Source: a virus
Lineage: Duplodnaviria; Caudoviricetes
DNA length: 64,000 nucleotides
Strand: one strand, 5' to 3'
Virus record (IMG/VR): IMGVR_UViG_2926558313_000004
Coordinates: 64,001-128,000 of that record
In this document: piece by piece, positions 43,839-60,717 of the stretch
How positions within the stretch are numbered: position 1 is the first letter of the stretch
Layout: each line of letters starts with the position of its first letter
Position numbers and translations under genes: made by a program
The notes under the pieces: generated by a model
Told to the model about the DNA's origin: nothing
Databases searched by the model: none
The model's input: only the letters and a program-made list of their open reading frames with translations

Positions 43839-44864
43839 GTGAATTTATTGGGAAAGATCAAACGAATAAAATATTTTACTCCTGAAAAGAAATCCCTCAT
43901 TTCAGAAGAAAATAGGAAGTTATATGAGAAATATTTAAAAAGCTCGATTATCAAAAATAAAGATGTGAAAGAAACTACCTATAAGGTTTATCAAAATTAC
44001 ATGGATCACTTTCTAGTTTATTTAGCTGAAGAATGGGATAATATCGGCTTATATAGCGAAGAATTCATGGAAGAAGCAGTAGATATTATGGAAGGATTTA
44101 TTGGTTTTTGCCAAGAAACTCTATTTAATAATAAGAAAGTAATAAACACTAAACTTAGTACTGTTTCAAGTTTTTATTTATGGAGTCTTAAAAGAGGATT
44201 GATTGATAGACACCCATTTGATAAGAAGCTTGAAAGAATGAAGGGTGCAAACGACGAAAAAATCAGAGATTCATATTATCTAACAGAAGAGCAAGTTCTA
44301 CAAATCCAAGATGGCTTATTGAATGATAAACGATATGATTTTCAGGATAGGCTTATTTGGAATATAGCTCTAGACTCCGCTAATCGGGTTGGCGCTCTAT
44401 CTCGCTTAACTATCTCTTCCTTAGATCTAGAGAATATGGTATTTGAAAATATAAGAGAAAAACGAGGCAAAATCGTAGAAGTTGCATTTGAAGAGGAAAC
44501 TAAGCTATTAATTGAAGAATGGCTTGAAATGAGAAAAGAGATGGATAATTTAGAAATTGATTCATTCTTTTTAACTAAATATAAGGGCAATTATAAACCA
44601 ATGGATTATGGAACTATTCAAAATCGAGTTAAAAAGATAGGTACTATTATTGGAATTGAAGATTTTTATGTTCATACTATTCGCAAAACAAAGTTGAACT
44701 TGCTATATGAACAGACTGGGAATATCGACATGGTTGCTGAATGGGCAAACCATGAATCTATTGAAACTAGTAAGAAACATTACATAAAACCAAAATCTAA
44801 GGCTCAGCTTAGACGTGAGATGAGAGAATTAATTAAGAAAAATAGAGATGAAAAGAAGAAATAA
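43839..44864 (+). CDS. Tyrosine recombinase/integrase (YomM position)
   Basis: ANRVGAL (R), EKRGK (K), HTIRK (HxxR), ANH, KHY (Y); hairpin terminator at 44884-44903. Confidence 0.9.
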   Translation: MNLLGKIKRIKYFTPEKKSLISEENRKLYEKYLKSSIIKNKDVKETTYKVYQNYMDHFLVYLAEEWDNIGLYSEEFMEEAVDIMEGFIGFCQETLFNNKKVINTKLSTVSSFYLWSLKRGLIDRHPFDKKLERMKGANDEKIRDSYYLTEEQVLQIQDGLLNDKRYDFQDRLIWNIALDSANRVGALSRLTISSLDLENMVFENIREKRGKIVEVAFEEETKLLIEEWLEMRKEMDNLEIDSFFLTKYKGNYKPMDYGTIQNRVKKIGTIIGIEDFYVHTIRKTKLNLLYEQTGNIDMVAEWANHESIETSKKHYIKPKSKAQLRREMRELIKKNRDEKKK

Positions 44865-47813: not shown

Positions 47814-48029
47814 TTTATTTTGTTTTATATTTTTCATCGCTTCCACTATCTCAGAATATTCATCATTTAAATATCTCTCAACAGCACGATCTAAAAGTCT
47901 CGTTTTTGGCATCCCTGTCTCTCGATGTACTTGATCTAGATATTCAAACAAATCATTTCGCAATGTGCTACTTAAAGGTCTCCTATGCTTAAGGTCTCTA
48001 ATTCCCAATATATGACTCCCTTTCAACAA
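47805..48029 (-). CDS. Ribbon-helix-helix DNA-binding protein
   Basis: RDLKHRRPLSSTL...L...ETGMPKTRLLDRAVE, RHH pattern. Confidence 0.8.
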   Translation of the reverse strand: MLKGSHILGIRDLKHRRPLSSTLRNDLFEYLDQVHRETGMPKTRLLDRAVERYLNDEYSEIVEAMKNIKQNKND

Positions 48030-48196
48030 CTTAATTCTATAACGTTCTATAACTTTCTTTATATTACTTTAACATCAAAAAGCCATACTTTCAATAAAAT
48101 AACCAATAAAAACAAAATAATCTTGAACGTTAATTAACGTTGTGGTATATTGTACTCAAGCAAGAAAAACATTCCAATATACTAGGAGTTGATCAA

Positions 48197-48403
48197 ATGT
48201 CGTACACATTGTATGTGAGTGCAGAACAAGTAATTTCTCTTGATATTGATTGTGAAAGCGAAGAATCGGCACTGGAGAAAGCTAACGAAATTCTCTCCGC
48301 TATCAAAAATCATATTGAGAAGAAATTAACAGACGAAGGTGCATATGTACATAGCAGCGAGATGGTTGTTGAGTTGGTAACAGTGAAGGATGAAGTTCTG
48401 TAA
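48197..48403 (+). CDS. Hypothetical protein (start MSYTL)
   Basis: AGGAG RBS; TTGAAC...TATATT promoter at 48123-48151. Confidence 0.7.
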   Translation: MSYTLYVSAEQVISLDIDCESEESALEKANEILSAIKNHIEKKLTDEGAYVHSSEMVVELVTVKDEVL

Positions 48404-48435
48404 GCTAGGTTCTAAAATAATGAGATTAAAAGGAG

Positions 48436-49323
48436 ATGTTAGAAATGGGTGCTAAAGTGAATGAGTTGCAATTAATTGAGGGTGGAAAAGATGTCAGAGA
48501 TAAGTTCATTGGCAAAGTTGAGATTTTAGAGCGTATGAAAGAATTAAGCTTATTACCAGATGGAGAAAATGCAAACACTGAAATGGTTGCAGAGTTTTAC
48601 GGGGTTTCAAAATCAACAATAGAAAGTGTCGTAGAAGACAATCGAAACGAAGTAATTGAAGATGGATACAATGTCTTAAAAGGCGCTGAGCTAAAGATTT
48701 TTAAAGGTAACACCCTACAAGGGTGCAACCTTAACAATAAGCTAAAATATGCCAGACAGATCGCCCTCTTCCCCCGTAGAGCAATCCTTCGTGTCGGTAT
48801 GTTGCTTCGTGATTCAGAAGTAGCTAAGCAAGTGAGAACATACTTGCTAAATGTAGAAGAGATTGCCTCCCCTACTCAAAAAGAAACGGCTAGAAAGCCA
48901 GCATGGACAACCGAAGAAGACCTAATTGTTTTGAACTCTGTCTTAATGAGCGTTAATAACGATGGGACGTTAACCGAGGGTTTAAAAGAAGCAAGTCAAA
49001 AATTGAACAGAAAATTCTCTACTGTAAATAGTCGTTGGCAATATAGTATAAGACATGTTGCTGACAAAGAAGTATTAGATAAGATCAAGAGCAACGTGGA
49101 TAGACACATGAAGAAAGATAGATCTGATGAAAATGAAGCAAATGAACTTCGCTTAGAAATTGGCTATCAGATAGACTCAGTATATCGTGAGAATTGTGAA
49201 CTAAAGAAAGAAAATGAAATACTAAAGTCTGATAATGAGAAATTAAAAAGAATGTACAAGAAGCTAAAATCAGAACACACAACCGTTATAGCTTATCCGA
49301 ACGGAAAAACCCATCGCCTTTAG
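48436..49323 (+). CDS. Antirepressor-like regulator with RsfA-like domain; native C-terminus displaced by IS (continues 50801..50858)
   Basis: N-term VAEFYGV...FPRRAILRVGMLLRDSEVAKQVRTYLL; AWTTEEDL...KLNR...RWQYSIR RsfA-type repeat; coiled coil. Confidence 0.75.
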   Translation: MLEMGAKVNELQLIEGGKDVRDKFIGKVEILERMKELSLLPDGENANTEMVAEFYGVSKSTIESVVEDNRNEVIEDGYNVLKGAELKIFKGNTLQGCNLNNKLKYARQIALFPRRAILRVGMLLRDSEVAKQVRTYLLNVEEIASPTQKETARKPAWTTEEDLIVLNSVLMSVNNDGTLTEGLKEASQKLNRKFSTVNSRWQYSIRHVADKEVLDKIKSNVDRHMKKDRSDENEANELRLEIGYQIDSVYRENCELKKENEILKSDNEKLKRMYKKLKSEHTTVIAYPNGKTHRL

Positions 49324-50800
49324 GCATGGGATGATAGTGAGGTCGGTCAGGGATGGCTTTTGCCATCTTAATTGACCGAAAAATCACTACACAAATTGTT
49401 TTTCATGCAAAAAATTGTTATATAATAGACATATAGCAAAAAAGGAAGTGACGAACAATGGTCATGTATTTAACTCAAAGCAATCAAATCAGAGGTCTTT
49501 CTAAGGAGCAATTTAAACAACTGAAAGAAATGTGTCACTATGCAAAAAACCTTTACAATGTAGGCTTGTATAATGTGCGACAACATTACTTTACAGAAAA
49601 AAGCTTTTTAAGCTATGAATCCAACTATCACGTTTCAAAAACCAATGAAAATTATGGCATGCTTCAAGCGGGTGTTTCACAGCAAATTTTAAAAGTAGTA
49701 GATCGCTCTTTTAAAAGCTTTTTTAATCTAATTAAGAAAGCGAAAAAAGATGAATACCGCTTTCAAGATGTGAAATTACCGAGATATTTAAAGAAAGATG
49801 GTCTGTTTCCACTCATTTTTTCTACAAATGCAATTAGTATTAAAGATGGTTTTTTCCGTGTAGCTGTTTCAAATGCGTACAAAAAGTTGAATCCAAATTT
49901 CCAACAAATCCTGATACCTTTCCCTTCAAGACTAGAGGGTAAAAAGATAAAAGAAGTACGAATCGTCCCAAGAAACAACGGACAATTCTTTTCTATTCAA
50001 TACGTCTATGAGCAACCGTATGAAGTGACAGAGCTAGATCGTAGCAAAGCACTAGCTATTGACATCGGATTAGACAATCTGGCTTCTTGCGTTGATACAG
50101 ATGGGGCATCCTTTTTAATGGATGGAAAGAAAATCAAATCAATTAACCGTCTATACAACAAAGAGAAAGCACGTTTACAATCCATTGCCATGAAACAGGG
50201 TATGAAATACACGAAGCAGATTGACGCTATAACATTGAAGCGCAATCGTCAAATCAGTGATTCCATAAAAAAAAGCGCCAGACACATCATTAACTATTGC
50301 ATAGAAAACAAAATCGGCAATCTAGTTGTGGGCTACAATAAAGATTTTAAGAGAAATATCAATATTGGCAAAAAGAATAATCAGCAGTTTGTACAAATTC
50401 CATTTGGAAATTTGAGAGAGCAACTTTTTAATCTTTGTGAGCGATATGGCATTGAATACAAAGAGCAAGAAGAAGCCTATACAAGCAAAGCGTCTTTTTT
50501 TGACAATGACCTCATTCCGAATTGGAATCCAGAAGAAAAAGAAAAGCACATTTTTAGCGGAAAACGTATAAAACGTGGTCTTTACCGCACGAAAACCGGA
50601 TATGAGCTAAATGCTGATATTAATGGAGCTTTAAATATTTTACGCAAAAGTAACTTGGTGGATTGTGAAATCCTACAAGCTAGAGGGCGTTTGGCTCGCC
50701 CATTAAGAATAAGAGTCATTTGACCAAACTTCTTTTAAAGAATCCCACTCGTTTCACCGCAAGGTGTAGAGCTTGCCCCTTTAGGGGTGGGAGAAGTCAA
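49290..50800 (+). mobile_element. IS200/IS605-family TnpB-only element (IS1341-like)
   Basis: Inserted 3' of TTAT (49286-49289), ends in TCAA, subterminal hairpins CCCATCGCCTTTAGGCATGGG and GCCCCTTTAGGGGT, no target duplication; excision restores the host reading frame. Confidence 0.9.
49458..50723 (+). CDS. tnpB: TnpB RNA-guided nuclease
   Basis: AKNLYN, RuvC-I LAIDIGLDN, QEEAYTSK, RuvC-III NADINGALNI. Confidence 0.95.
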   Translation: MVMYLTQSNQIRGLSKEQFKQLKEMCHYAKNLYNVGLYNVRQHYFTEKSFLSYESNYHVSKTNENYGMLQAGVSQQILKVVDRSFKSFFNLIKKAKKDEYRFQDVKLPRYLKKDGLFPLIFSTNAISIKDGFFRVAVSNAYKKLNPNFQQILIPFPSRLEGKKIKEVRIVPRNNGQFFSIQYVYEQPYEVTELDRSKALAIDIGLDNLASCVDTDGASFLMDGKKIKSINRLYNKEKARLQSIAMKQGMKYTKQIDAITLKRNRQISDSIKKSARHIINYCIENKIGNLVVGYNKDFKRNINIGKKNNQQFVQIPFGNLREQLFNLCERYGIEYKEQEEAYTSKASFFDNDLIPNWNPEEKEKHIFSGKRIKRGLYRTKTGYELNADINGALNILRKSNLVDCEILQARGRLARPLRIRVI

Positions 50801-50930
50801 GAATGTTGTTGGTGCTGCTATGAAGGCTCATACTCGTGAAGTATTGAGGATGAAATAGAGCGTATAATATACTAGTAAAAACCTCCCATTTTGTCGTATA
50901 ATGGTAGAATGACGGATGGGAGGTGAAGAA

Positions 50931-51689
50931 ATGAATATATTAAGTATCTTACATACTTTTGAGAACTTAACTAATAAAGAAAAAGAGCGACTTTTAAAAG
51001 AATTTAAGGTGAAGTCGTTTGTTGAACTCCACTTGAAAATTAATGAATCATTGAAAAAAACTCTAAATGTAATTGAAAATCAAGATTTAATTAATGCATC
51101 AAAATTCGTTAGGTGGAATGATGATTGGAATGAATATGGAATTTACGGAAGTAAAAGAGAAGTCTTGAAAGAAGTAGCTTCCAAAACCTATAGTAGAGGT
51201 AGAATTTTATTCATTGACTTCGGTCATCACAACATAGGTAGAGAGTTTTCGCATAATCATGCAGGAGTCGTACTAAAAGACTTTGGTTCAGTTATAGAAG
51301 TATTGCCTATAACATCGGACAAAGGTAAGAAATTTTCCAGCGATATTGAAAAAGCGATTATTCGAGTAAAGAAAGCCGATTATAATCAGTTTGATAATAA
51401 TTCAATTTTGTTAACACATCAAATTCAATCAATCTCTAAGAATAGAATTATCAAAGACTTACACAAAACAATAGCTAAGACAGAATTAATGGTTCAGATT
51501 GAAGAAAGACTATCCTTCACTTATGCTCCTTACTATTCCAAAAAACAAAATGATGAAATAAACTCATTATCAGAAAAAGTTTTGCAATTAGAAGAAGAAA
51601 TTCGTATTATGAGTGAATTAACTAAGGGAATAACTGAAGTAACTACTAGTGAAAAGTTAATCGCTTCTCATAAAGAAATAGTTGACTAA
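50931..51689 (+). CDS. PemK/MazF-fold endoribonuclease-like protein with N- and C-terminal extensions
   Basis: RGRILFIDFG...NIGREF...HAGVVL...VLPITS, QIQSISKNRI; GGGAGGTG RBS; TATAAT upstream. Confidence 0.8.
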   Translation: MNILSILHTFENLTNKEKERLLKEFKVKSFVELHLKINESLKKTLNVIENQDLINASKFVRWNDDWNEYGIYGSKREVLKEVASKTYSRGRILFIDFGHHNIGREFSHNHAGVVLKDFGSVIEVLPITSDKGKKFSSDIEKAIIRVKKADYNQFDNNSILLTHQIQSISKNRIIKDLHKTIAKTELMVQIEERLSFTYAPYYSKKQNDEINSLSEKVLQLEEEIRIMSELTKGITEVTTSEKLIASHKEIVD

Positions 51690-51710
51690 ACACAACAAAA
51701 CGTGTATGAT
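51682..51710 (+). promoter_or_regulatory. sigmaA promoter for downstream sRNA
   Basis: TTGACT-17nt-TATGAT overlapping the stop of the PemK-like gene. Confidence 0.75.
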
Positions 51711-51716
51711 GTAAGT

Positions 51717-51832
51717 ATCAAAAGTTATATTAACCCTTTCCGTAAGGAATGAGGCTGTGCAATTAACCTATTAACCCTTGCAATATTGCAAGAGGCTTAA
51801 GACCTCCCTCCATTGTGAGCGAGGTCTTTTTC
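51717..51832 (+). ncRNA. Putative small RNA with two structured 29-nt repeats
   Basis: Repeats at 51728-51756 and 51769-51797; terminator AAGACCTC...GAGGTCTTTTT; no plus-strand ORF. Confidence 0.65.
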
Positions 51833-51932
51833 GTGGTTTCGATATTTGTTTATACATATGCCCCATGTCTCCCCTACTCTACTGGAGTCAGGGGATTTTT
51901 GTGTTTTAATTGCTTTGAAAGGAGTTGATGAA

Positions 51933-54900
51933 ATGAATGAAGATTTGAAGTTGCTGATTACAGCAGGGATTAATACTGGTACATCTGTAAGGGAAATCAA
52001 TAATTCAATTAAACAACTGCAGAAAGTTGTTAATCAAAAGAAATTAAATTTAAATATTAAAGTTAATCAAGATACTTTAAAGCAAATTGAAATGTTTAAT
52101 ACACGGATGAAGGCGCTGGGAGATCAAGCTTTAAATACACGGAAAGTTATAGAAGAAGTCACCTCCCCCACTGGCGCAAAAGTAACAAGAACTCACTGGG
52201 AAGGTGTAGGTGGGGCATTTTCTGAGATCGAATCAAAAGCCAAGCAGACTCAGAAATCAATGGCTCAAACATCGGAAGTAGCAAAAGAGACTAAAAAAGA
52301 ATTTGATTCAATAGCAACATCTACTCAAAAAAATGAGAAATCAGCTCAAAAATTTAACTCTGAAATTCAAAAAACAGAGAATTTAGTAAAGCGTACATCA
52401 CGTTTGAATTCTGAAGGTAAAAAGGTTTGGGATGAGACATATCAAAGCGCTTCAAAGGCACGGCAGGAAGTTGTTAAATATAATGAACATGGTGAACAAA
52501 CCAATAAAGTTTACACTGAAAATTATAATAATTTAAGAAAACTTTCTCAGGAACGAGCTAAGTTGAGACGTGAATTGGTTGCAATGCAATCAGATGGTCG
52601 TATTTCTCAATCTCAGTTTAATGATTTATCTAGTAGATTAAATACAAGCACTAGCCAAGTTGCTTTGAATAAATATAAAGAACAGATGAAGTCATTAACT
52701 ACAGTTACAAGCCAAGCAACAGCTAATCAAGCTAAATTAAATCAAGAGCAAGGTAAATTTAGAATTAATTTAAATCAATTACATAATCAAGGAAAAATTA
52801 CTGAAGATCAATTAAGACAATTCAGTAATGCGGTTAATACTACAAAGTCAGTCGGACAAGTTAAAAGGCTATCGCAAGAAATAGATAAGCTAAGAGTGAA
52901 GGCTTCCAGTGTGTCTTCTACTCCACTAACTCAATTTGATCTAGATTTAGCAAGAAGGCAATTTGATAATAAAGCAAGTGAGGCAATTAGACAATACCCA
53001 TCTATTGATAAACGGGCAATAGCTGACCTGCAAAATCAGTTTAAATCACTAGAAGTAGGAACAGATAACGTAAGAAATAAAATAAGAGATTATAACATGT
53101 CTCTAACGGAAACTGTCAGTCAGACTAAACGTGTGACTGCTAATACTAATACAATGGCTGGGGCATTCCAGAATGCAATGGTGGAATATCGCCGTCTAGC
53201 TTAGTAATAGGCTAGATTATGACAGGGGAAAATCGGTGAAGGCTAAGTCGTAAGATATGCTAATACCGAGGTAAATATTAAATGTAAAAGTTTAATATCA
53301 CCGTAACGCATAGGTCTTGAACCTGTGTTTTTATCCACAGAATATAATAGACCCACGAGTCTCCTGTACCCTATCGATTATTCGAGGGTAAAAATGTATG
53401 CTATCTCATCATGAATCAACATGATTCAAAGGAGGAAACTCCGAGGGAGTAAAGATAAAAAGCTTTACTGTGAAAAATGGAAGTTCCCTATCTGGATGGC
53501 AGCCAGTACCGCTTTCTTTGGTACGATCAGAAGTTTCCAAAATATGTTAACACAAATTATCGAGATCGACAGTCAAATGACCTCATTAATGAGGGTATCC
53601 AATGGAGAAATCGATAGAAATCATATTCTTCAGCAAAGTGTTGATTTGGCAACGCGATTGGGTAATACAATAAGCCAAATTAACGCTGGGCTTGAAACGT
53701 TCGCCAGACAAGGCTTTAGAGATGATGGGCTAATTGCCATGACGGAAGCATCTACCTTATTTTCCAATATTTCGGAAATGGATGTTGACCAAGCGGCAAG
53801 TGGTCTAACTGCTATAGCTATGGGCATGAAGGAAATTAGCGATACAGATATCATGGTTGCGGTTGATGCCATAAATGAAGTCGATAATAATTTTGCGATT
53901 TGAAGAAGTCGCCTATATTGGTAACAATATAGTGATAACTCAGTGAACCCTATTGCTCAGGGGTGTACATTATTGTGCTAACGGTGGAAGTCTAAGTTAT
54001 TTTAATACTTAATAAAATAATATGATAATACCGTGCCAAGCTTGAAAGGTAACTTTCTTGAAGGTGTAACGACTAATTCTTAGGAGGGAAAGATGAGCTG
54101 CCCTTCGAAGCGCTGAGAATCCTTTTTAAAGGATTATGATATAGTCTAACCCCTATTAAATATGTCGAAAGACAGGGTATTATATGTTCTTCTCAAAATA
54201 TTGTTCAATCTATCCAAAAGTCAGTAGGTGCTGCAGAGACATTTGGTGTTTCACTGCATGAGCTAATTGGTTATACCACTGCTATTGGAGAAACTACGAG
54301 GGAATCTGGAAATATCATCGGTGAAAAGTTGCTGATGTAAAATTCTCACTTATTGACTTGGACGCCCTAACGTTTAGACGAGGGTAACAGGGGCGAAGTT
54401 TAAATACACGCTGAACGACTGAGTGTGAGAACGCTATTAAGCATAGCGAAGCGACAGTCTGAACTTCTATGGAGACATAGAGAGTAAGGTTGAAGCGCCT
54501 TACCGCCAAATATAGTATTTGGTCAGTAACCTTTAAACTAGGTGAAAGTAACAGCTTGAACAGTCTTAAAACAATATTTTCCAGAATCACCACAATGGAT
54601 GGTTCAATTGATGCATTAAACTCAGTTGGTATAGCTGTACATAATATGGAGGGCGATGTTCGTCCAGTAGCAAATATATTAGATGAATTAGGCAGTAAAT
54701 GGAGTTCCTTGAACTCTCAACAACAGCAATCTATTGCGCTTCAAATTGCCGGCAGATATCAGCTCTCGCGCTTCTTGGTTTTGATGAATAACCATTCTAG
54801 AGCCATCGAAGCTACTAACACAGCCATGAATTCCGCAGGATCTGGAATGAGGGAGAATGAACAATACTTACAATCATTAGAAGCCCGCATAAACAGATTT

Positions 54901-57900
54901 AAAAATTCGTGGACTGAAATGGCTATTACTGTCGGAGACGCTTTTCTGTCTGATGGTATTGTAGCATTTTCAGAAACTATGGCTACAATTTTATCTTCTA
55001 GTTCAGATATCATTAGTGTAATTGGTTTTCTGCCTCCAGCTCTTGGTGCGGCAACAGTGGCAACTGTAGCACTTAATTCTTCAATGAGAACCAATATAAC
55101 GACCGCCGCAGCTCAAGCGGGAACGCTAACTACACTTAGAGGTATAATTTCAGGTGTAGGTGCAAGTGCAACAGCAACTGGTGCAGCTTTAGCAACTATG
55201 GGACGTTTCATGATTGGAGCCTTACCGCCTGTTGCTCTGATAATGCTTGGTAGCTTTGCATTAGAAAAGCTCTTCTCAGCTTACATGAAGAATAGAGAAG
55301 AAGTAAGGCAGCTAGAGCAAGAAATGAATAAGTCCACCGAGGCAATTAGAAGTCAAGGTGACACAGTTGATGAACTTGCAAATAGGTTCCAAGAACTTGA
55401 AAAATTAAAGCAAACAACTGGTTTAACAAATGAACAGGAAGAGGAATTTGTAAGTCTACAGAATCAATTAGCAGAAATACTACCTACTGTAGCTAGTGGA
55501 TTAGATGAAAAAGGGAACAAGCTGATTGAAAGCTCTGATTTACTACAACAGGAAATTGACCTATTAAAAGAAAAAATTGAACTGGAGAAAGAGCAGAATA
55601 GACTGAATTTAGATTCAAACATTAATAGTCTGCAATTAGATATCGATAAAGAAATTAATAATATTGATAAATTGAAAAAGCATGTAATTTTTTACGAAGA
55701 AGAAATTTCTAGATTGCAAAATGACAATACTGCCTCTGCTTTCGACATTGAATGGAATCAACTGCAATTATTTGCTACAAAACAAAAAATCATTGAAGCA
55801 GAGCAGAAAATTCTAAATCTTAATAAGCAAATAGGTCAAACAGTTGCCGATACTGTTGAAGATGCTTCTAACTTAAGTAATCTGGATTTTGACTGGATAT
55901 CTGAGATCAAAAAGAATGGATTCGATGGCATTGATTTAAATAATGATGAATTAATTAAATTCACTAAAACCCTCTCCTCTATTCGCAAATCTTTCGGTGA
56001 AGCATTTTCAACCGATCAACTAAAAACTTTTTCTCAAGAGCAGTTGCAAATCCTCTCCCACATGTCAGTTAATCTTCAAAATGGGACAAAAGATTTTAGT
56101 GATTGGACAGATGCTTTAAAAAATGCAGGGTTCTCATCTGATGATGCAGAATCAGCTATTAGTGCGTTAAATAGAGCTGTTGAGGAAACTGCTCATGTAC
56201 AAGAAATGGTTGATCTTGGTGTATTTCGTGATTTAGAAGGAACAATTCCTGTAAAAACTACGAAAGAATACAATGAAGTTATAGAAGAAGGTATTCCTCT
56301 TTATATTGAAGTCGATGGGGTTATGCAGGAATTAACTGACACTTTAGACTCCCAATCCGAATCCATCGATCTCACTGAAAAATCCTTCGAAGAACTCACT
56401 CAATACATAGCCGAAAAAACTAACCCTACCCTATCCGATTACATGGCACTGGCATCAGCCACATCAGATGAACTCGACATCCTCTCCTCTGCTCACAAGG
56501 AATTAATCACCGACGGTAAGCTTTCTCAATCAAGTCTAGATAAGCTAATCGAAGCTTACCCAGACTTCATCAAAGTAACTGGCTTATCGACAGATAAGAT
56601 GCTTGAATTTATAACAGCTTCTAAGCAGCAACGTATGCAAGCAATTCGTGATCAAAAAGAAATGACTAGAGCAACCATCGAAGAAACTGAGAAGCGAATT
56701 GCAGAGATGCAAAAAGAAATCGACGCAATGGGAGCGCGGACTCTAGCTCAAATCAGAAGTTATAACGCTCAAATTACTAGTCTAAGAAATGCATTGTCTA
56801 ACACGACTGACCGAAGCGAACAAGAAAGACTCTCTAATGAAATCACTCGCATTAGTGGAGTCATTTACGATTTAAATACTGCCTTCCAAGAGCAGCACAC
56901 TATTCTAAGTGACTTAAAAAAAGAAAATGAGGAAGCAACTAATTCATACACTTACCTCGACTATGCAGTAAATGATTTAGCTGAATCTTATCATAAGAAT
57001 ACTGAAGCAAACGACAAAAATAATAAATCTCAAAAAGACTCAATTTATTTAGCTAATAAGCGAGAAGAAGCAATCAAGGCTCTTAATCGTGAACTAACCA
57101 GACAGCAAAACGCTCAAAATAACTTACTAAAGGGATCTCAAAGATGGTTAAAAGCTAAGCAGGAAGAAATCAACCTCACTCAAAAACTAAGAGAAGAATT
57201 AGCTAATCAGAGGGCGGAATTAGAAAAACTACAAAATGCAGGAATCGTTCAACAATCAGGAGTAGTAAATTCTTCTTCGATGAATGGTGGATCGTCTTCA
57301 TCGTCTTATAGCGGTCAATACGCTACTTATATTAATAAAGCCGCTGCACAATACGGAATTGATCCAAATCTAATTGCGGCTGTCATTCAAACAGAATCTA
57401 ATTTCAATTCAAATGCCCGTTCCTCTGCCGGAGCACAGGGATTAATGCAATTAATGCCTGCTACCGCTAGAGAACTTGGAGTTACCAACATAAATGATCC
57501 TGAACAAAACATTATGGCAGGAACTAAATACCTCGCACAGCAACTTGAAAGATTTAGCGGAGATATCGAAAAAGCATTAGCTGCTTACAATGCGGGTCCC
57601 GGCAATGTTCAGAAATGGGTTAATAATGGTCAATGGGGTAATATACCGTTTAAGGAAACTCGAAATTACATTCCAAAAGTCTTAAATGAATACGGTAAAT
57701 TTAATAATAATTCATCCTCTACAAGCGGAGTCTCTAATGATGTAGCCTCATATTATCTTAATAATTTCCGTCAAACTTCTCAGTTTGGTATGCGTAATGG
57801 ACGTATGCACAATGGAATTGATCTCGCCCCAATGGAAAGAGGTAAACAAGGCGATCCAATTAAGGCTCTTATGGGTGGAGTTGTCAAATCAGTTGGTTAT

Positions 57901-60717
57901 CAAAAAGATGGAGCTGGCTATTATATTACGTTAGAGCATATGGATGGTTCAGTAACTAAATATTTCCACCTTATGGAAATGCCTAGTTTAAAAGTTGGTC
58001 AACAAGTACAAGGTGGTCAGCAAATAGGTAAATTAGGAAACACTGGACGCTCTTCAGGTGCTCATCTTCATCTTGAATATTTGCAAAATGGTAAAGCCGT
58101 CAACCCTTTACCCGTTCTTCAGCAAATAGCACAAGGCGGAGGCGATTTTGCCCAATATCAACAAGGTCTTGCTAATCAAGCCCAAACAATTGAAGATTTA
58201 AAAGTTCAAGAACATCAGCTATATTTGCAGCAGCAAAAAATTCAAGAAGATTATTTAAATGGTTTAATTGAAAATCACAATCGTTCAATAGAAAGATTAG
58301 AGCGTTCAATTCAAGAACAGCAGAACATTATCGACCAAAATCCAGAAGGCTCAGCAGCCCGCAACCAAGCATTAAATCAAATTAACTACCTTCAAAGCTT
58401 AATTGATAAGGAATTAAATGAAATCCAGTATAAGGCTGGACAATACTCAAACAGAACAGATATTTCTGAACAAGGTAGATATGATTTTGCCGTACTTCGT
58501 GATGAAACTCGACTACGCAGACAAGGTATAACCATAGAGCAAGCTGAACGTAATGCCACACGCACTGAAGAAAAAGTTACTCAGCTACAAGGATTAATTG
58601 AACAGCAAAACCGATCCCTTCAACACGTTGAAAATGAATTAAACAAATTAGATCCCTACTCTCCTGAATATCGTGAAATGTTAGATGATCGACTTAAACA
58701 CGAAAATGAAGCTCTTCGTCTTATGAATCGAATTAAAGAAGAATATACTAAAGCGATTGAATCAGGAAAATTAACTGAAGCTTCAATTAATCAATTTAAA
58801 CAAGCGTTGTCGGATACGAACTTAGAAATCGAAGAACAATCTCGTTTAATCAAAGAAATAGATGAACTTTTTGCAGAGAGTGTCATTGGTGAATATAATC
58901 GAGAATTAGATAAACTCTCTTACCAATATGACTTATCAACAAAGACAATGGCTTTATACAAAGAAGGCTCAAAAGATTACATGCTTGAACTGAGCAAGCA
59001 AGCGAGTATAACAACGGAGCAAATCAATAAAGAAAAAGAATTACAACAAACCCTTCTTGAACTTTTAAGAACTAAAGATTTATCTATACAGAAGCAAGAA
59101 GAATATAATGAAATGATAAGAACTTCAGTTATTAGACAAAAAGAATTTCAACTCACTCTTCTAAACACAAGAGAATATATTCAAAATCAAATTGCAGATC
59201 AATTAACTAAACAGCAAACTCAATATTTAGATACTTTGAAAAATAAGTATGATGAACTAAATAAAACTCTAGAATCATTAATTAAACCAGAGGATATATT
59301 TAATGCTAATGAATTTAAGCACAGCATCAATGAGATTATTTACGAACTAGAGCGAATTGATGGTCAATTTAAGAAAAACGCCATGTTTGTAGAATCTGCA
59401 TCTGGAGTATATAAAAATCTCGATCAAACGAGAAAATCAATTCTTGATATGGCAAACGCCATTGAAAAAATGGCTAATTCCACATCTAATAATCAGTCTG
59501 AATTAGAGAAAATGATTCGCTCGCAATCTCAATATGCCAATCAAATTAAAGATGAAATTGAACTTATCGATCAGAGAATTCGTCAAAGAGAGCTTGAACA
59601 GAAGAAAATTGAAGATTCTCTTCAAAATCAAATAGATCTCAGACAAAAAGAAATAGAGCAATTAGATGAACAATATCAAAAAGAAGATAGACTCAAACGA
59701 TTACGTGATCTAGAAGAAGAAATGGATAAAGTGTATAACGATAGACGTTTTGAGTATATTGACGCAGAAGGAAATGTCATCCTTACCTATGACAGAGGTC
59801 GCTACAATGAATTAGTCAAACAACGTGACGAGATGCTTGAGCAATACGAGCGTGAAGATATTAAAAAAGCCCGTCAAGATGAAATTAATGAACTCCAAGA
59901 AAAGCTAAACAAAACGAGAGAAATTCACAGGGCAGAAATAAATGACATCAATCTTCAACGCAATGCTTTAAACACTTTATACAATGCTTTAGTTGCAAAC
60001 ACTAGAGATAAAATGGCTCAGCTTAAATCATTACAAGACCAACATCTCGAAGACACAAGAAAGAATTGGGATGACATTATTGAATCCGTCAGAGAAGGAA
60101 CAATGACCTATTCTGAATTAATGAATAGCTGGTATGGATCTGCATTAGAAGAGATGAAGGACTTTGGGTTGGAAGTGGCTGAAGAAGTCAATAAAATAAA
60201 GGATTTATACAATCAATTATTTGAAGTTCAAGTTCCGGAGCCTCCAAAACAAAAGAGTGGTAGTAGCGGAAGTAGCAGTTCTAAAACTGGAAGTACCATC
60301 GGAAGAGTTATAGGTGGTTTTGTAGGAGGAGGAGCAGGTGGCGCTGTTGGTGGAGCAATCGGCGGCGCTATTGGCTCAATCAGAGATAAAATCACTAAAA
60401 AACATGATGGCGGCATTGTCGAGGGTGGAAAGCCAAATAAAGTCACACAATTGATGAATACCCTCATGAATGCTAATGCAGATGAGCAAGCAATTTTAGC
60501 ATTGAAAAATGAATTATTCTCTCCTGAAGAAAATCTTACCAAATACGCTCTTCCTAACATGAGAAATCTAATGAGTAAGGTTACACCTAATTTAAGTTTA
60601 CAACCACAAACAACTGAAACTCATTACCATATTCATAAAGACATCTTAGTAAAAGCGGATAATCCATACGATATGCTTCAAGGTATTCGTACTTTTGTAA
60701 ATACAAATAAAGGTTAA
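51933..60717 (+). CDS. yomI: Tape measure protein with SLT and M23 domains, spliced: join(51933..53182,53480..53899,54187..54322,54559..60717), 2654 aa
   Basis: Splicing yields NAMV|KFPIWM, DNNFAI|SSQ, TRESGNIIG|NSLKTIFSRI; SLT motifs QTESNF, GLMQLMP, AAYNAG; M23 HNGID and HLH. Confidence 0.92.
53183..53479 (+). ncRNA. Group I intron 1 of tape measure gene (297 nt, no ORF)
   Basis: P1 AUGGU|G..CGCCGU with U.G at splice site, terminal G, P7 AACGCAUA/UAUGC, P10 GGAAU/GUUCC. Confidence 0.9.
53900..54186 (+). ncRNA. Group I intron 2 of tape measure gene (287 nt, no ORF)
   Basis: P1 GCGAU|UU..AAGUCGC, R AACGACUA, S GAUAUAGUC, P3 CUCAGU/GCUGAG, terminal G. Confidence 0.92.
54323..54558 (+). ncRNA. 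Group I intron 3 of tape measure gene (236 nt, no ORF)
   Basis: P1 CAUCGGU|GA..UUGCUGAUG, R AACGACUG, S GACAGUC, P3 UUCUCAC/GUGAGAA, terminal G. Confidence 0.9.

Follow-up and report, generated by a model that had tools for sequence, protein, structure and literature searches.

In the type III toxin-antitoxin systems (ToxIN, CptIN and TenpIN), a toxin is neutralised by direct binding of an RNA that is present in excess, and these systems are linked to abortive infection. Type III toxins belong to the wider Kid/MazF-like RNase fold class. Their RNA lies upstream of the toxin gene, with a shared promoter and an attenuating terminator, and consists of a head-to-tail array of pseudoknot units. 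Here, we describe a locus in a 64,000-nt stretch of viral DNA (positions 64,001 to 128,000 of the IMG/VR record IMGVR_UViG_2926558313_000004; this whole stretch is called the window below), where the gene for a protein of the MazF/PemK fold is directly followed by a predicted small RNA having two hairpin units. The conserved pairing of such a protein with such an RNA is well supported, and we judge the chances that the RNA functions as an antidote to be about even.

The locus shares with type III systems a MazF-like fold protein and the carriage on mobile elements, and for the neutralisation by direct binding of a repeat-containing RNA, the RNA excess and the link to abortive infection we propose a counterpart. 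However, its RNA is located downstream under its own promoter, it has two spaced hairpins instead of a pseudoknot array, and the protein is a PemK_toxin protein with extra N- and C-terminal domains, and not a ToxN, CptN or TenpN. The initial annotation of this DNA had already set the locus apart from the canonical type III arrangement, and the downstream position of the RNA, its own promoter, its hairpins and the PemK_toxin protein all agree with that view; it is not a canonical type III member.

The other close counterpart is AbiF(Cd)/RCd22 from the Clostridioides difficile prophage phi027. In the available part of its description (PMC12373285), the RNA neutralises the toxin by direct contact, whether in cis or in trans, and RCd22, an RNA of 100-130 nt, is driven by a sigma-A promoter, holds a conserved hairpin motif twice and ends in a Rho-independent terminator. 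As far as that part of the description goes, our locus resembles this system in having a prophage-encoded protein and an RNA in which two hairpins stand between a sigma-A promoter and a terminator. It differs in that the AbiF toxin is an Abi_2/AbiD/F protein and not of the MazF fold, in that RCd22 is encoded upstream, with read-through giving the toxin, and in that the RCd22 motif (Rfam RF03085) is unrelated in sequence.

With the type II systems MazEF, PemIK and Kid-Kis, the likeness is in the protein. Its core fold is closest to the MazF proteins of Bacillus subtilis, Staphylococcus aureus and Bacillus anthracis, and its loop Glu and the Thr/Ser of its P-x-T-S strand align with MazF residues. 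Unlike in type II, there is no MazE/PemI-type gene in the operon, an invariant His replaces the catalytic Arg and the length of the protein is doubled. As no protein antitoxin gene is present, the locus is not a member of type II MazEF. By analogy, the module would work most like type III and AbiF/RCd22, and structurally its protein is a MazF.

The MazF/PemK-type gene and its downstream RNA

The initial annotation had placed here a PemK-like open reading frame (ORF) with no protein antitoxin gene beside it, a TTGACT-17-TATGAT promoter at its stop codon, and an element of about 115 nt with two equal-length units (conserved flanks, pairing inner stems), a partial copy between them and a terminator. 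We found all of these parts in the sequence, with slightly corrected coordinates, and the downstream element has the makeup of an independently transcribed small RNA. The features are as follows.

50844-50873, + strand: promoter-like site for the PemK-like gene, TTGAGG-18-TATACT, a weak match (9/12) with a presumed role
50881-50924, + strand: 5' leader hairpin, whose 3' arm contains the Shine-Dalgarno sequence
50918-50923, + strand: Shine-Dalgarno sequence GGGAGG of the PemK-like ORF
50931-51689, + strand: PemK-like ORF of 252 aa, with the TAA stop at 51687-51689
51682-51710, + strand: sigma-A-type promoter of the small RNA, TTGACT-17-TATGAT, 10/12 matches, overlapping the TAA stop
51682-51687, + strand: -35 box TTGACT
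51705-51710, + strand: -10 box TATGAT
51717-51832, + strand: predicted small RNA of about 115 nt, its start placed from the -10 box and its end from the terminator
51728-51756, + strand: hairpin unit 1, 29 nt, TATTAACCC / inner stem / GAGGCT (covariance model R1: 42.1 bits, E 1.3e-9)
51761-51768, + strand: AATTAACC, a partial copy of the 5' flank of the units, absent from the spacers of the related loci L035 and L004
51769-51797, + strand: hairpin unit 2, 29 nt, whose inner stem differs and yet pairs (model R1: 43.5 bits, E 5e-10)
51800-51831, + strand: intrinsic terminator, AGACCTC...GAGGTCT, with a 7-bp GC-rich outer stem followed by a T-run

PemK_toxin (PF02452) was the only Pfam family matched by the 252-aa protein (residues 89-194, E 5.9e-8, 33.3 bits against a curated cut-off of 23.1); none of ToxN, CptN and TenpN was matched. 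A profile search of the Protein Data Bank (PDB) gave B. subtilis MazF with RNA (4mdx, E 2.4e-7). The AlphaFold2 model, built from a family alignment of 39 sequences, had a mean predicted local distance difference test score of 94.6, and in it four helices at the N-terminus (residues 3-69) are followed by a beta-barrel core (91-180), while a helix of about 50 residues (200-251) forms the C-terminus, the MazF/PemK barrel spanning about residues 89-194. With these added helical domains, the protein attains about double the length of a classical MazF-type toxin. When the model was compared with the PDB by Foldseek, the top matches were MazF proteins, namely those of S. aureus (4mzp), B. subtilis (YdcE, 1ne8), B. 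anthracis (MoxT, 4hke) and again 4mdx, with target-normalised TM scores of 0.77-0.82 (4mzp and 1ne8 being the best at 0.80-0.82). Since Foldseek ranked MazF proteins first on this confident model, we concluded that the core, as modelled, is a true MazF/PemK domain, which is the fold assigned by the initial annotation. For the N-terminal domain, structural look-alikes were informative only within its own family; the long C-terminal helix may drive oligomerisation.

Next, we looked at the residues of the predicted active site. E105, H110, P126 and T/S128-S/T129 are invariant across all of the 42 aligned family proteins from the loci described below. In the profile alignment, His110 sits at the Arg of the GSEQGGVRP loop of B. 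subtilis MazF and Thr128 at the Thr of its AAITAQ segment, which we take to be the catalytic Arg25 and Thr48, respectively. The MazF-type catalytic Arg of the beta1-beta2 loop is therefore not present, and the invariant His110 stands at that position. The 252-aa protein is probably an RNA-binding protein of the MazF/PemK fold and an endoribonuclease. It also matched PHROG 1412 (E 1.8e-14; the relative at L003 matched at E 7.1e-30), a family labelled 'antitoxin mazE-like'. This label is at odds with the MazF-like fold and is therefore unsupported. No known defence family of PADLOC was matched below E 0.01, and NCBIfam was likewise uninformative for this protein.

Neither the ORF list nor Pfam revealed a protein antitoxin gene adjoining the PemK-like ORF in the window; between the upstream TnpB gene and this ORF, the sole frame is of 39 aa and starts with TTG. 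Among the relatives, too, no upstream protein antitoxin gene was consistent.

In the downstream RNA, units 1 and 2 are identical in their 5' part (TATTAACCCTT) and their 3' part (GAGGCT), and their inner stems differ and still pair. In RNA letters, the conserved 5' flank of the units reads UAUUAACCC and the 3' flank GAGGCU. The units are separated by a 12-nt spacer and each folds as a hairpin, in which the inner stem stands on two C-G pairs with a bulged A in between. The fold predicted for the transcript (about 119 nt) consists of the two hairpins and the terminator, with -32 kcal/mol (z = -3.39), and only 2 of 200 dinucleotide shuffles were as stable. The terminator was read by eye and in the folds, the automatic scan having given only an overlapping alternative at 51820-51841. 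The promoter lies in a region where promoter-like sites by themselves are not rare (8, against 5.8 +/- 2.4 in shuffles). When a covariance model of the unit was searched against the 4.5-Mb genome, its matches were exactly units 1 and 2. No Rfam family matched the window RNA or the leader at E <= 1.

The leader of the PemK-like gene is also structured. Its hairpin has a minimum free energy of -21.1 kcal/mol (z = -4.80), and none of 200 shuffles was as stable. The promoter-like site at 50844-50873 ends about 7 nt ahead of this conserved leader, and a similar leader (CCTCY...TGTCGAA...GGAGGTGA) is found upstream of the homologues at L035 and L020.

Recurrence of the protein-RNA pair

For each distinct locus obtained (designated by L numbers), we inspected by eye the 250-300 nt that follow the stop codon. 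Left out of the count were L001 (spurious), L005, L006 and L039 (duplicates), L012 (pseudogenic, with three stops), L024, L025 and L027-L034 (short PemK-core-only matches, uninspected), L042, L045 and L047-L050 (near-identical), and L062-L143 (identical staphylococcal or streptococcal copies). By this visual assignment, 29 of the 43 distinct loci have at least two hairpins and then an intrinsic terminator directly 3' of the stop codon, so the repeats are not lacking from the homologues. In most cases a near-consensus sigma-A promoter precedes the hairpins, overlapping the stop or lying just past it. One unit was seen in two of the 43 loci (L020 and L051), and in loci other than the window the number of units ranged from 1 to 3.

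The promoter was also assessed against controls. A promoter with at least 10/12 matches lay within -20 to +120 of the stop codon in 16 of 32 loci, whereas it did so in only 101 of 2982 control ORFs (3.4%; ORFs of at least 200 aa from the genome of the window). Eight of 10 further annotated phage loci had a promoter with at least 9/12 matches within -11 to +9 of the stop. Relatives with less than 30% identity still had the promoter, the two hairpins and the terminator at the same place. The pairing is present in prophages of S. aureus, Streptococcus pyogenes and Streptococcus pneumoniae, and we concluded that many phages of Bacillus-like, staphylococcal and streptococcal bacteria carry it.

The surroundings of the pair vary. 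In phages and satellites of Staphylococcus and Streptococcus, the gene and its RNA are placed between the repressor and the integrase; the family gene is next to the transfer-messenger RNA gene in L008, precedes the tape-measure gene in the window and also occurs in phage contigs of 107-166 kb. The RNA accompanies the protein regardless of the neighbouring genes. RNA of the type found in the staphylococcal phage phiMR25 was present in 33 phage records, in 32 of them at >=99% identity, and the protein at >=99% identity in 32 records. In records common to both tables (e.g. SA13, SA12, phage 85 and phiMR25), the RNA starts about 12 nt past the stop. In the Staphylococcus arlettae phage BM31, the protein is 57% and the RNA 78% identical. 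Among the 33 phage-record matches to the phiMR25-type RNA, 28 carry no annotated feature.

The sequence of the RNA is alike within a protein subfamily and different between subfamilies. One motif, (A)CCC / inner stem / G-A-GGCU, is common to the window, to the locus L035 of Vulcanibacillus and to the viral contig L004; in L007, the inner stem is missing and (G)CCC-UUU-GAGGC remains. A second group (L003, L023, L043, L022, L041, L010, L011 and L040) has UGCCC / inner stem / UG(C/U)GG(C/U)C, the inner stem being missing in L041. The units of streptococcal phages have 4-bp stems and 5-nt loops with an invariant closing G-C pair and an A following, and the staphylococcal phiMR25-type units have 5-bp stems and a UGAAAUAUUU loop. 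In all of them the helix base, the bulge or loop and the flanking nucleotides stay constant, and the sequence of the stem is free as long as it pairs.

We measured this covariation group by group. In the window group (5 units), 92.5% of the cells were paired and 4 of 8 pairs had changed on both sides; none of 500 shuffles attained the covariation score, and slid controls gave 37-45% paired cells. Among the streptococcal units, which had been picked as hairpins, 36 of 36 cells were paired, 3 of 4 pairs had changed on both sides, and the four Watson-Crick types were all seen at 3 of 4 positions (17 cells changed). The staphylococcal units, picked in the same way, had 20 of 20 cells paired and 3 of 5 pairs changed on both sides. 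As the stems covary and the loop and flank stay fixed within a locus, sequence-specific recognition of the folded strand is indicated. The covariance model of the unit also recovered a unit of L004, which has a 30-nt insertion and was absent from the training set, at E 0.038.

Other short elements were seen near these genes. Model R1 matched a palindromic site in L040 (3343-3376, both strands; E 0.005), about 1.2 kb upstream of the family gene. Between stop codon and RNA promoter, short repeats occur in tandem or spaced apart. They are ACTTAAAGYT-like 9-10-mers within the first 100 nt in L041 and L042, and contain AAATGG within the first 95 nt in L004; these might be protein-binding sites. In streptococcal phages, the S. 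pyogenes small RNA family Spy779816 (RF02589) lies on the opposite strand between the two-hairpin RNA and the integrase gene, with matches of up to 110.6 bits (L036 2298-2384, minus strand; L152 1246-1334, minus strand; L150, L153, L154 and L151).

Expression of the RNA class is indicated by Sau-63. The Rfam family sau-63 (RF02394) matched L155 at 128 bits (gathering score 100), the match beginning 38 nt past the stop codon of a family member of 234 aa (E 7.6e-18 with the family profile) and 7 nt after a TTGAAT-17-TATAAT promoter overlapping that stop, and extending to the terminator. In the available part of its description, Sau-63 is an RNA of about 100 nt from the island SaPIn2 of S. aureus N315, located between two hypothetical proteins and validated by Northern blotting (PMC3053349). 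Annotators' notes on the homologues of streptococcal phages give 'hypothetical protein [Pathogenicity island SaPIn2]' as the best match. As Sau-63 was Northern-validated and maps directly after a family gene, we concluded that at least one RNA of this class truly exists as a transcript of its own. The RNA of phage YMC/09/04/R1988 (L147) scored 51.7 bits against RF02394, which is below the gathering score of 100, and the window RNA had no match to it at E <= 1. The likeness of the window RNA to Sau-63 is in the position after a stop-overlapping promoter, the hairpins and the terminator, so that the two are of the same class by context and not by sequence. In the open literature (PMC and bioRxiv), we found nothing on the function of Sau-63 or its tie to a PemK-like gene, and no paper tying the PemK-like phage protein to a downstream RNA.

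The Rfam pemK motif (RF02913), named after neighbouring pemK genes, resembles the window RNA in name only. It is a different RNA of 61 positions, and neither the window nor any of 36 related loci matched it at E <= 1; it was rejected as an identity of the window RNA. It was found in 7 of 151 genomes sampled, and in 8 of 8 loci there was no family ORF within 1.5 kb; the genes around it look like what we take to be Tn916-type elements. The available part of the main text of PMC5737381 makes no mention of pemK.

Genomic setting and distribution of the family

The stretch lies in a prophage, with a terminase gene (from 32274), a portal gene (from 33778), virion protein genes and a tape-measure gene. 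A block of accessory genes (43.8-51.9 kb), in which the PemK-like gene is found, separates the head genes from the tape-measure gene. The neighbouring genes are as follows.

43839-44864: tyrosine integrase gene, the first of the accessory block, in the middle of the structural region
within 43.8-51.9 kb: acetyltransferase gene, in the same accessory block
48436-49323: gene of an ORF6N-like protein, accessory block
49458-50723: solo TnpB gene (Pfam OrfB_IS605, E 1.4e-22, plus a Cas12f1-like TNB domain)
51933 onwards: tape-measure gene, very long, just beyond the small-RNA element

The TnpB gene lies directly upstream of the PemK-like gene and is single-copy in the genome; no tnpA was seen, and no Rfam match to an omega-RNA for TnpB was obtained in 48000-54000. 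The tape-measure gene is present in three pieces (51933-60717, with gaps at 53205-53420 and 53904-54489), which correspond to consecutive positions of the PHROG 4211 profile (196-547, 588-726 and 772-2584). Matches to group I introns (RF00028), all of them weak and under the gathering score, fall in these gaps (53173-53427, E 0.0076; 53890-54165, E 3.2e-7; 54263-54482, E 0.0012). Judging from the sequence, the gene is probably split by two or three group I introns.

Close relatives of the window protein are rare. A word-indexed search (778 candidates) gave two besides itself, with about 50% identity. On genome contigs, Vulcanibacillus was the sole relative, the Bradyrhizobium match (L001) being spurious; metagenome contigs held no close relative, and a phage database searched with the window DNA or protein gave no match. 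An exhaustive phmmer search yielded 115 cluster representatives at E <= 1e-3, of which 47 were at E <= 1e-10. Most of these family members have 190-300 aa and a common three-part layout. The motif LWNDxWNxYG closes the N-terminal domain, and RGxxxxIDFGxxNIGxExSxxHxGxV, VxPxTS and HQIRxVSKNRI are further family motifs. In many members the long helix is also followed by a short tail resembling (E/Q)(V/A)A(A/S)T(E/S) (residues ~230-240 in the window protein), which could tag the protein for degradation, take part in an interaction or act as an intramolecular plug.

The occurrence of the family in genomes is patchy. It was found in 2 of 61 genomes of close relatives; at E <= 1e-12, 5 out of 401 genomes sampled from the order had it, and at E <= 1e-8, 39 out of 401 from the class. 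By tblastn with the phiMR25 protein, 111 phage records were found (63 of Staphylococcus and 48 of Streptococcus). In IMG/VR, this protein (one S. aureus variant) had 104 matches, and the best 80 of the 104 were all identical. Among the phage records listed, the labels were 'hypothetical protein', 'antitoxin mazE-like' or 'PemK/MazF family toxin'. One subfamily, the seven loci L013-L019, is of a different kind; it comes from one bacterial family of high GC content and is chromosomal and syntenic, with a convergent gene abutting the stop codon and with no downstream RNA. Its proteins retain E105, H110, P126 and TS128-129.

Possible functions of the pair and their meaning

We lean towards the reading that the gene and the RNA form a two-part toxin-antitoxin module of temperate phages, in which the RNA neutralises the protein by direct binding in a type III-like manner. 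Such a system had been put forward in the initial annotation; of that proposal, the MazF/PemK fold, the lack of a protein antitoxin and the small-RNA anatomy hold in the sequence, and the conserved pairing, the covariation of the stems and the expression of one homologous RNA are observed in addition. Binding, inhibition, toxicity, stoichiometry and the trigger are what we infer. As the pairing recurs in so many phages, the RNA is probably a built-in inhibitor of the MazF/PemK-type protein.

In this scheme, the RNA would be made in two ways: by read-through from the toxin transcript, as there is no terminator between gene and RNA, and from the strong, presumably constitutive, promoter overlapping the stop codon. 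The end-of-gene promoter together with the read-through would keep the RNA in excess, and the leader hairpin, by hiding the ribosome-binding site, would keep toxin synthesis low. The protein may recognise the conserved base, bulge and flanking nucleotides of the two equivalent hairpins. Its MazF-type core would dimerise, as MazF proteins do, and each hairpin could then fill one RNA-binding groove (one per subunit), so that the bound RNA would keep the RNA-binding or active site occupied and act as an antitoxin by direct binding. If transcription of the module fell, for example because a superinfecting phage shuts off the host or because the element is lost, decay of the RNA would free the RNase.

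Several points weigh against this reading. Twelve of the 43 loci (L008, L009, L044, L046, L053 and L013-L019) are without a clear hairpin pair, and therefore the protein can exist without the RNA. The classes of loci were assigned by eye, and kin among them are not independent (the RNAs of L026 and L148 are nearly the same). As the RNAs of the subfamilies are unalignable, homology of the RNA across the family rests only on position and architecture. Because the streptococcal and staphylococcal units were picked as hairpins, part of their pairing follows from that choice. The choice does not account for the geometry that they share, the loop and flanks that stay the same, the existence of two units or their fixed place between promoter and terminator. 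A small helix-turn-helix (HTH) or ribbon-helix-helix (RHH) gene lies upstream in 4 loci only (L003, L023, L041 and L004), and it could be a protein antitoxin or a regulator. Finally, with His in place of the catalytic Arg, the sequence suggests that the protein might bind RNA without cutting it.

Some of these points are shared by a doubtful but serious rival, in which the two partners form a non-toxic ribonucleoprotein or regulatory pair, the RNA being a substrate, cofactor or sponge of a protein that binds or processes RNA with specificity for sequence and structure, and the pair might control phage lysogeny genes or host RNAs. We take it seriously because of the His at the Arg position, the chromosomal L013-L019 that lack the RNA and yet keep the conserved site, and the four loci with an HTH or RHH gene. 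The conserved protein-RNA pairing fits it equally, and the extra N- and C-terminal domains of the protein would also suit it. The location of the pair inside the lysogeny module of Staphylococcus and Streptococcus phages, between repressor and integrase, agrees with a regulatory role; however, its position in the window and in large phage contigs is unconnected with lysogeny control. Moreover, the patchy distribution on mobile elements is typical of selfish or defence modules, a translation-blocking leader together with a strong separate promoter for the RNA suits an excess of RNA over a harmful protein, and the invariant His with Thr/Ser and Arg/Lys could still make an active site.

Alternatively, the hairpins could be cis elements without a protein partner, such as 3'-untranslated region stabilisers or terminators of the PemK-like mRNA, or sites acting as DNA, for instance operators or recombination sites, as their place directly 3' of the gene with a terminator at the end, and the presence of a terminator hairpin alone in several loci (L009, L044, L046 and L053), might suggest. 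We consider this improbable in view of the near-consensus promoters between stop codon and hairpins and of the two units of a locus keeping loop and flank while their stems covary; also, Sau-63 is a separate RNA in the available part of its description (PMC3053349), and the 5' end of the L155 match is at the predicted start. Least probable is a type I-like or antisense action, with the RNA pairing to the leader or ribosome-binding site of the toxin mRNA and blocking translation: the structured leader hides the Shine-Dalgarno sequence and ACCUCCC in the terminator arm of the window RNA complements GGGAGGU of the toxin, but this C-rich stretch is not kept in other loci, the RNA is encoded in sense orientation downstream, and across 22 loci the duplex energies of the RNA with its own toxin 5' region were no better than those of shuffled RNAs (median z = -0.17; window z = +1.64), and so the antisense model was rejected.

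Returning to the RNA-neutralised toxin, it is in our judgement an evenly balanced question whether these loci represent a widespread, undescribed class of toxin-RNA antitoxin modules in temperate phages, satellites and genomic islands of Firmicutes, in which a MazF dimer would be held inactive by a two-hairpin RNA. If this is true, the class would add a fourth architecture for antitoxins that are RNAs acting by binding, a classical type II toxin fold would have been captured by an RNA antidote with a gene architecture of its own, and the orphan small RNA Sau-63 would gain a function. Should the RNA be the antidote, type III-like systems would have to be defined more widely than by ToxN, CptN, TenpN and AbiF, and the pair would offer a compact model for how a MazF-type protein reads hairpin RNA. 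The module is common in prophages of important Gram-positive bacteria, and the two-hairpin rule provides a simple route to finding more such RNAs.

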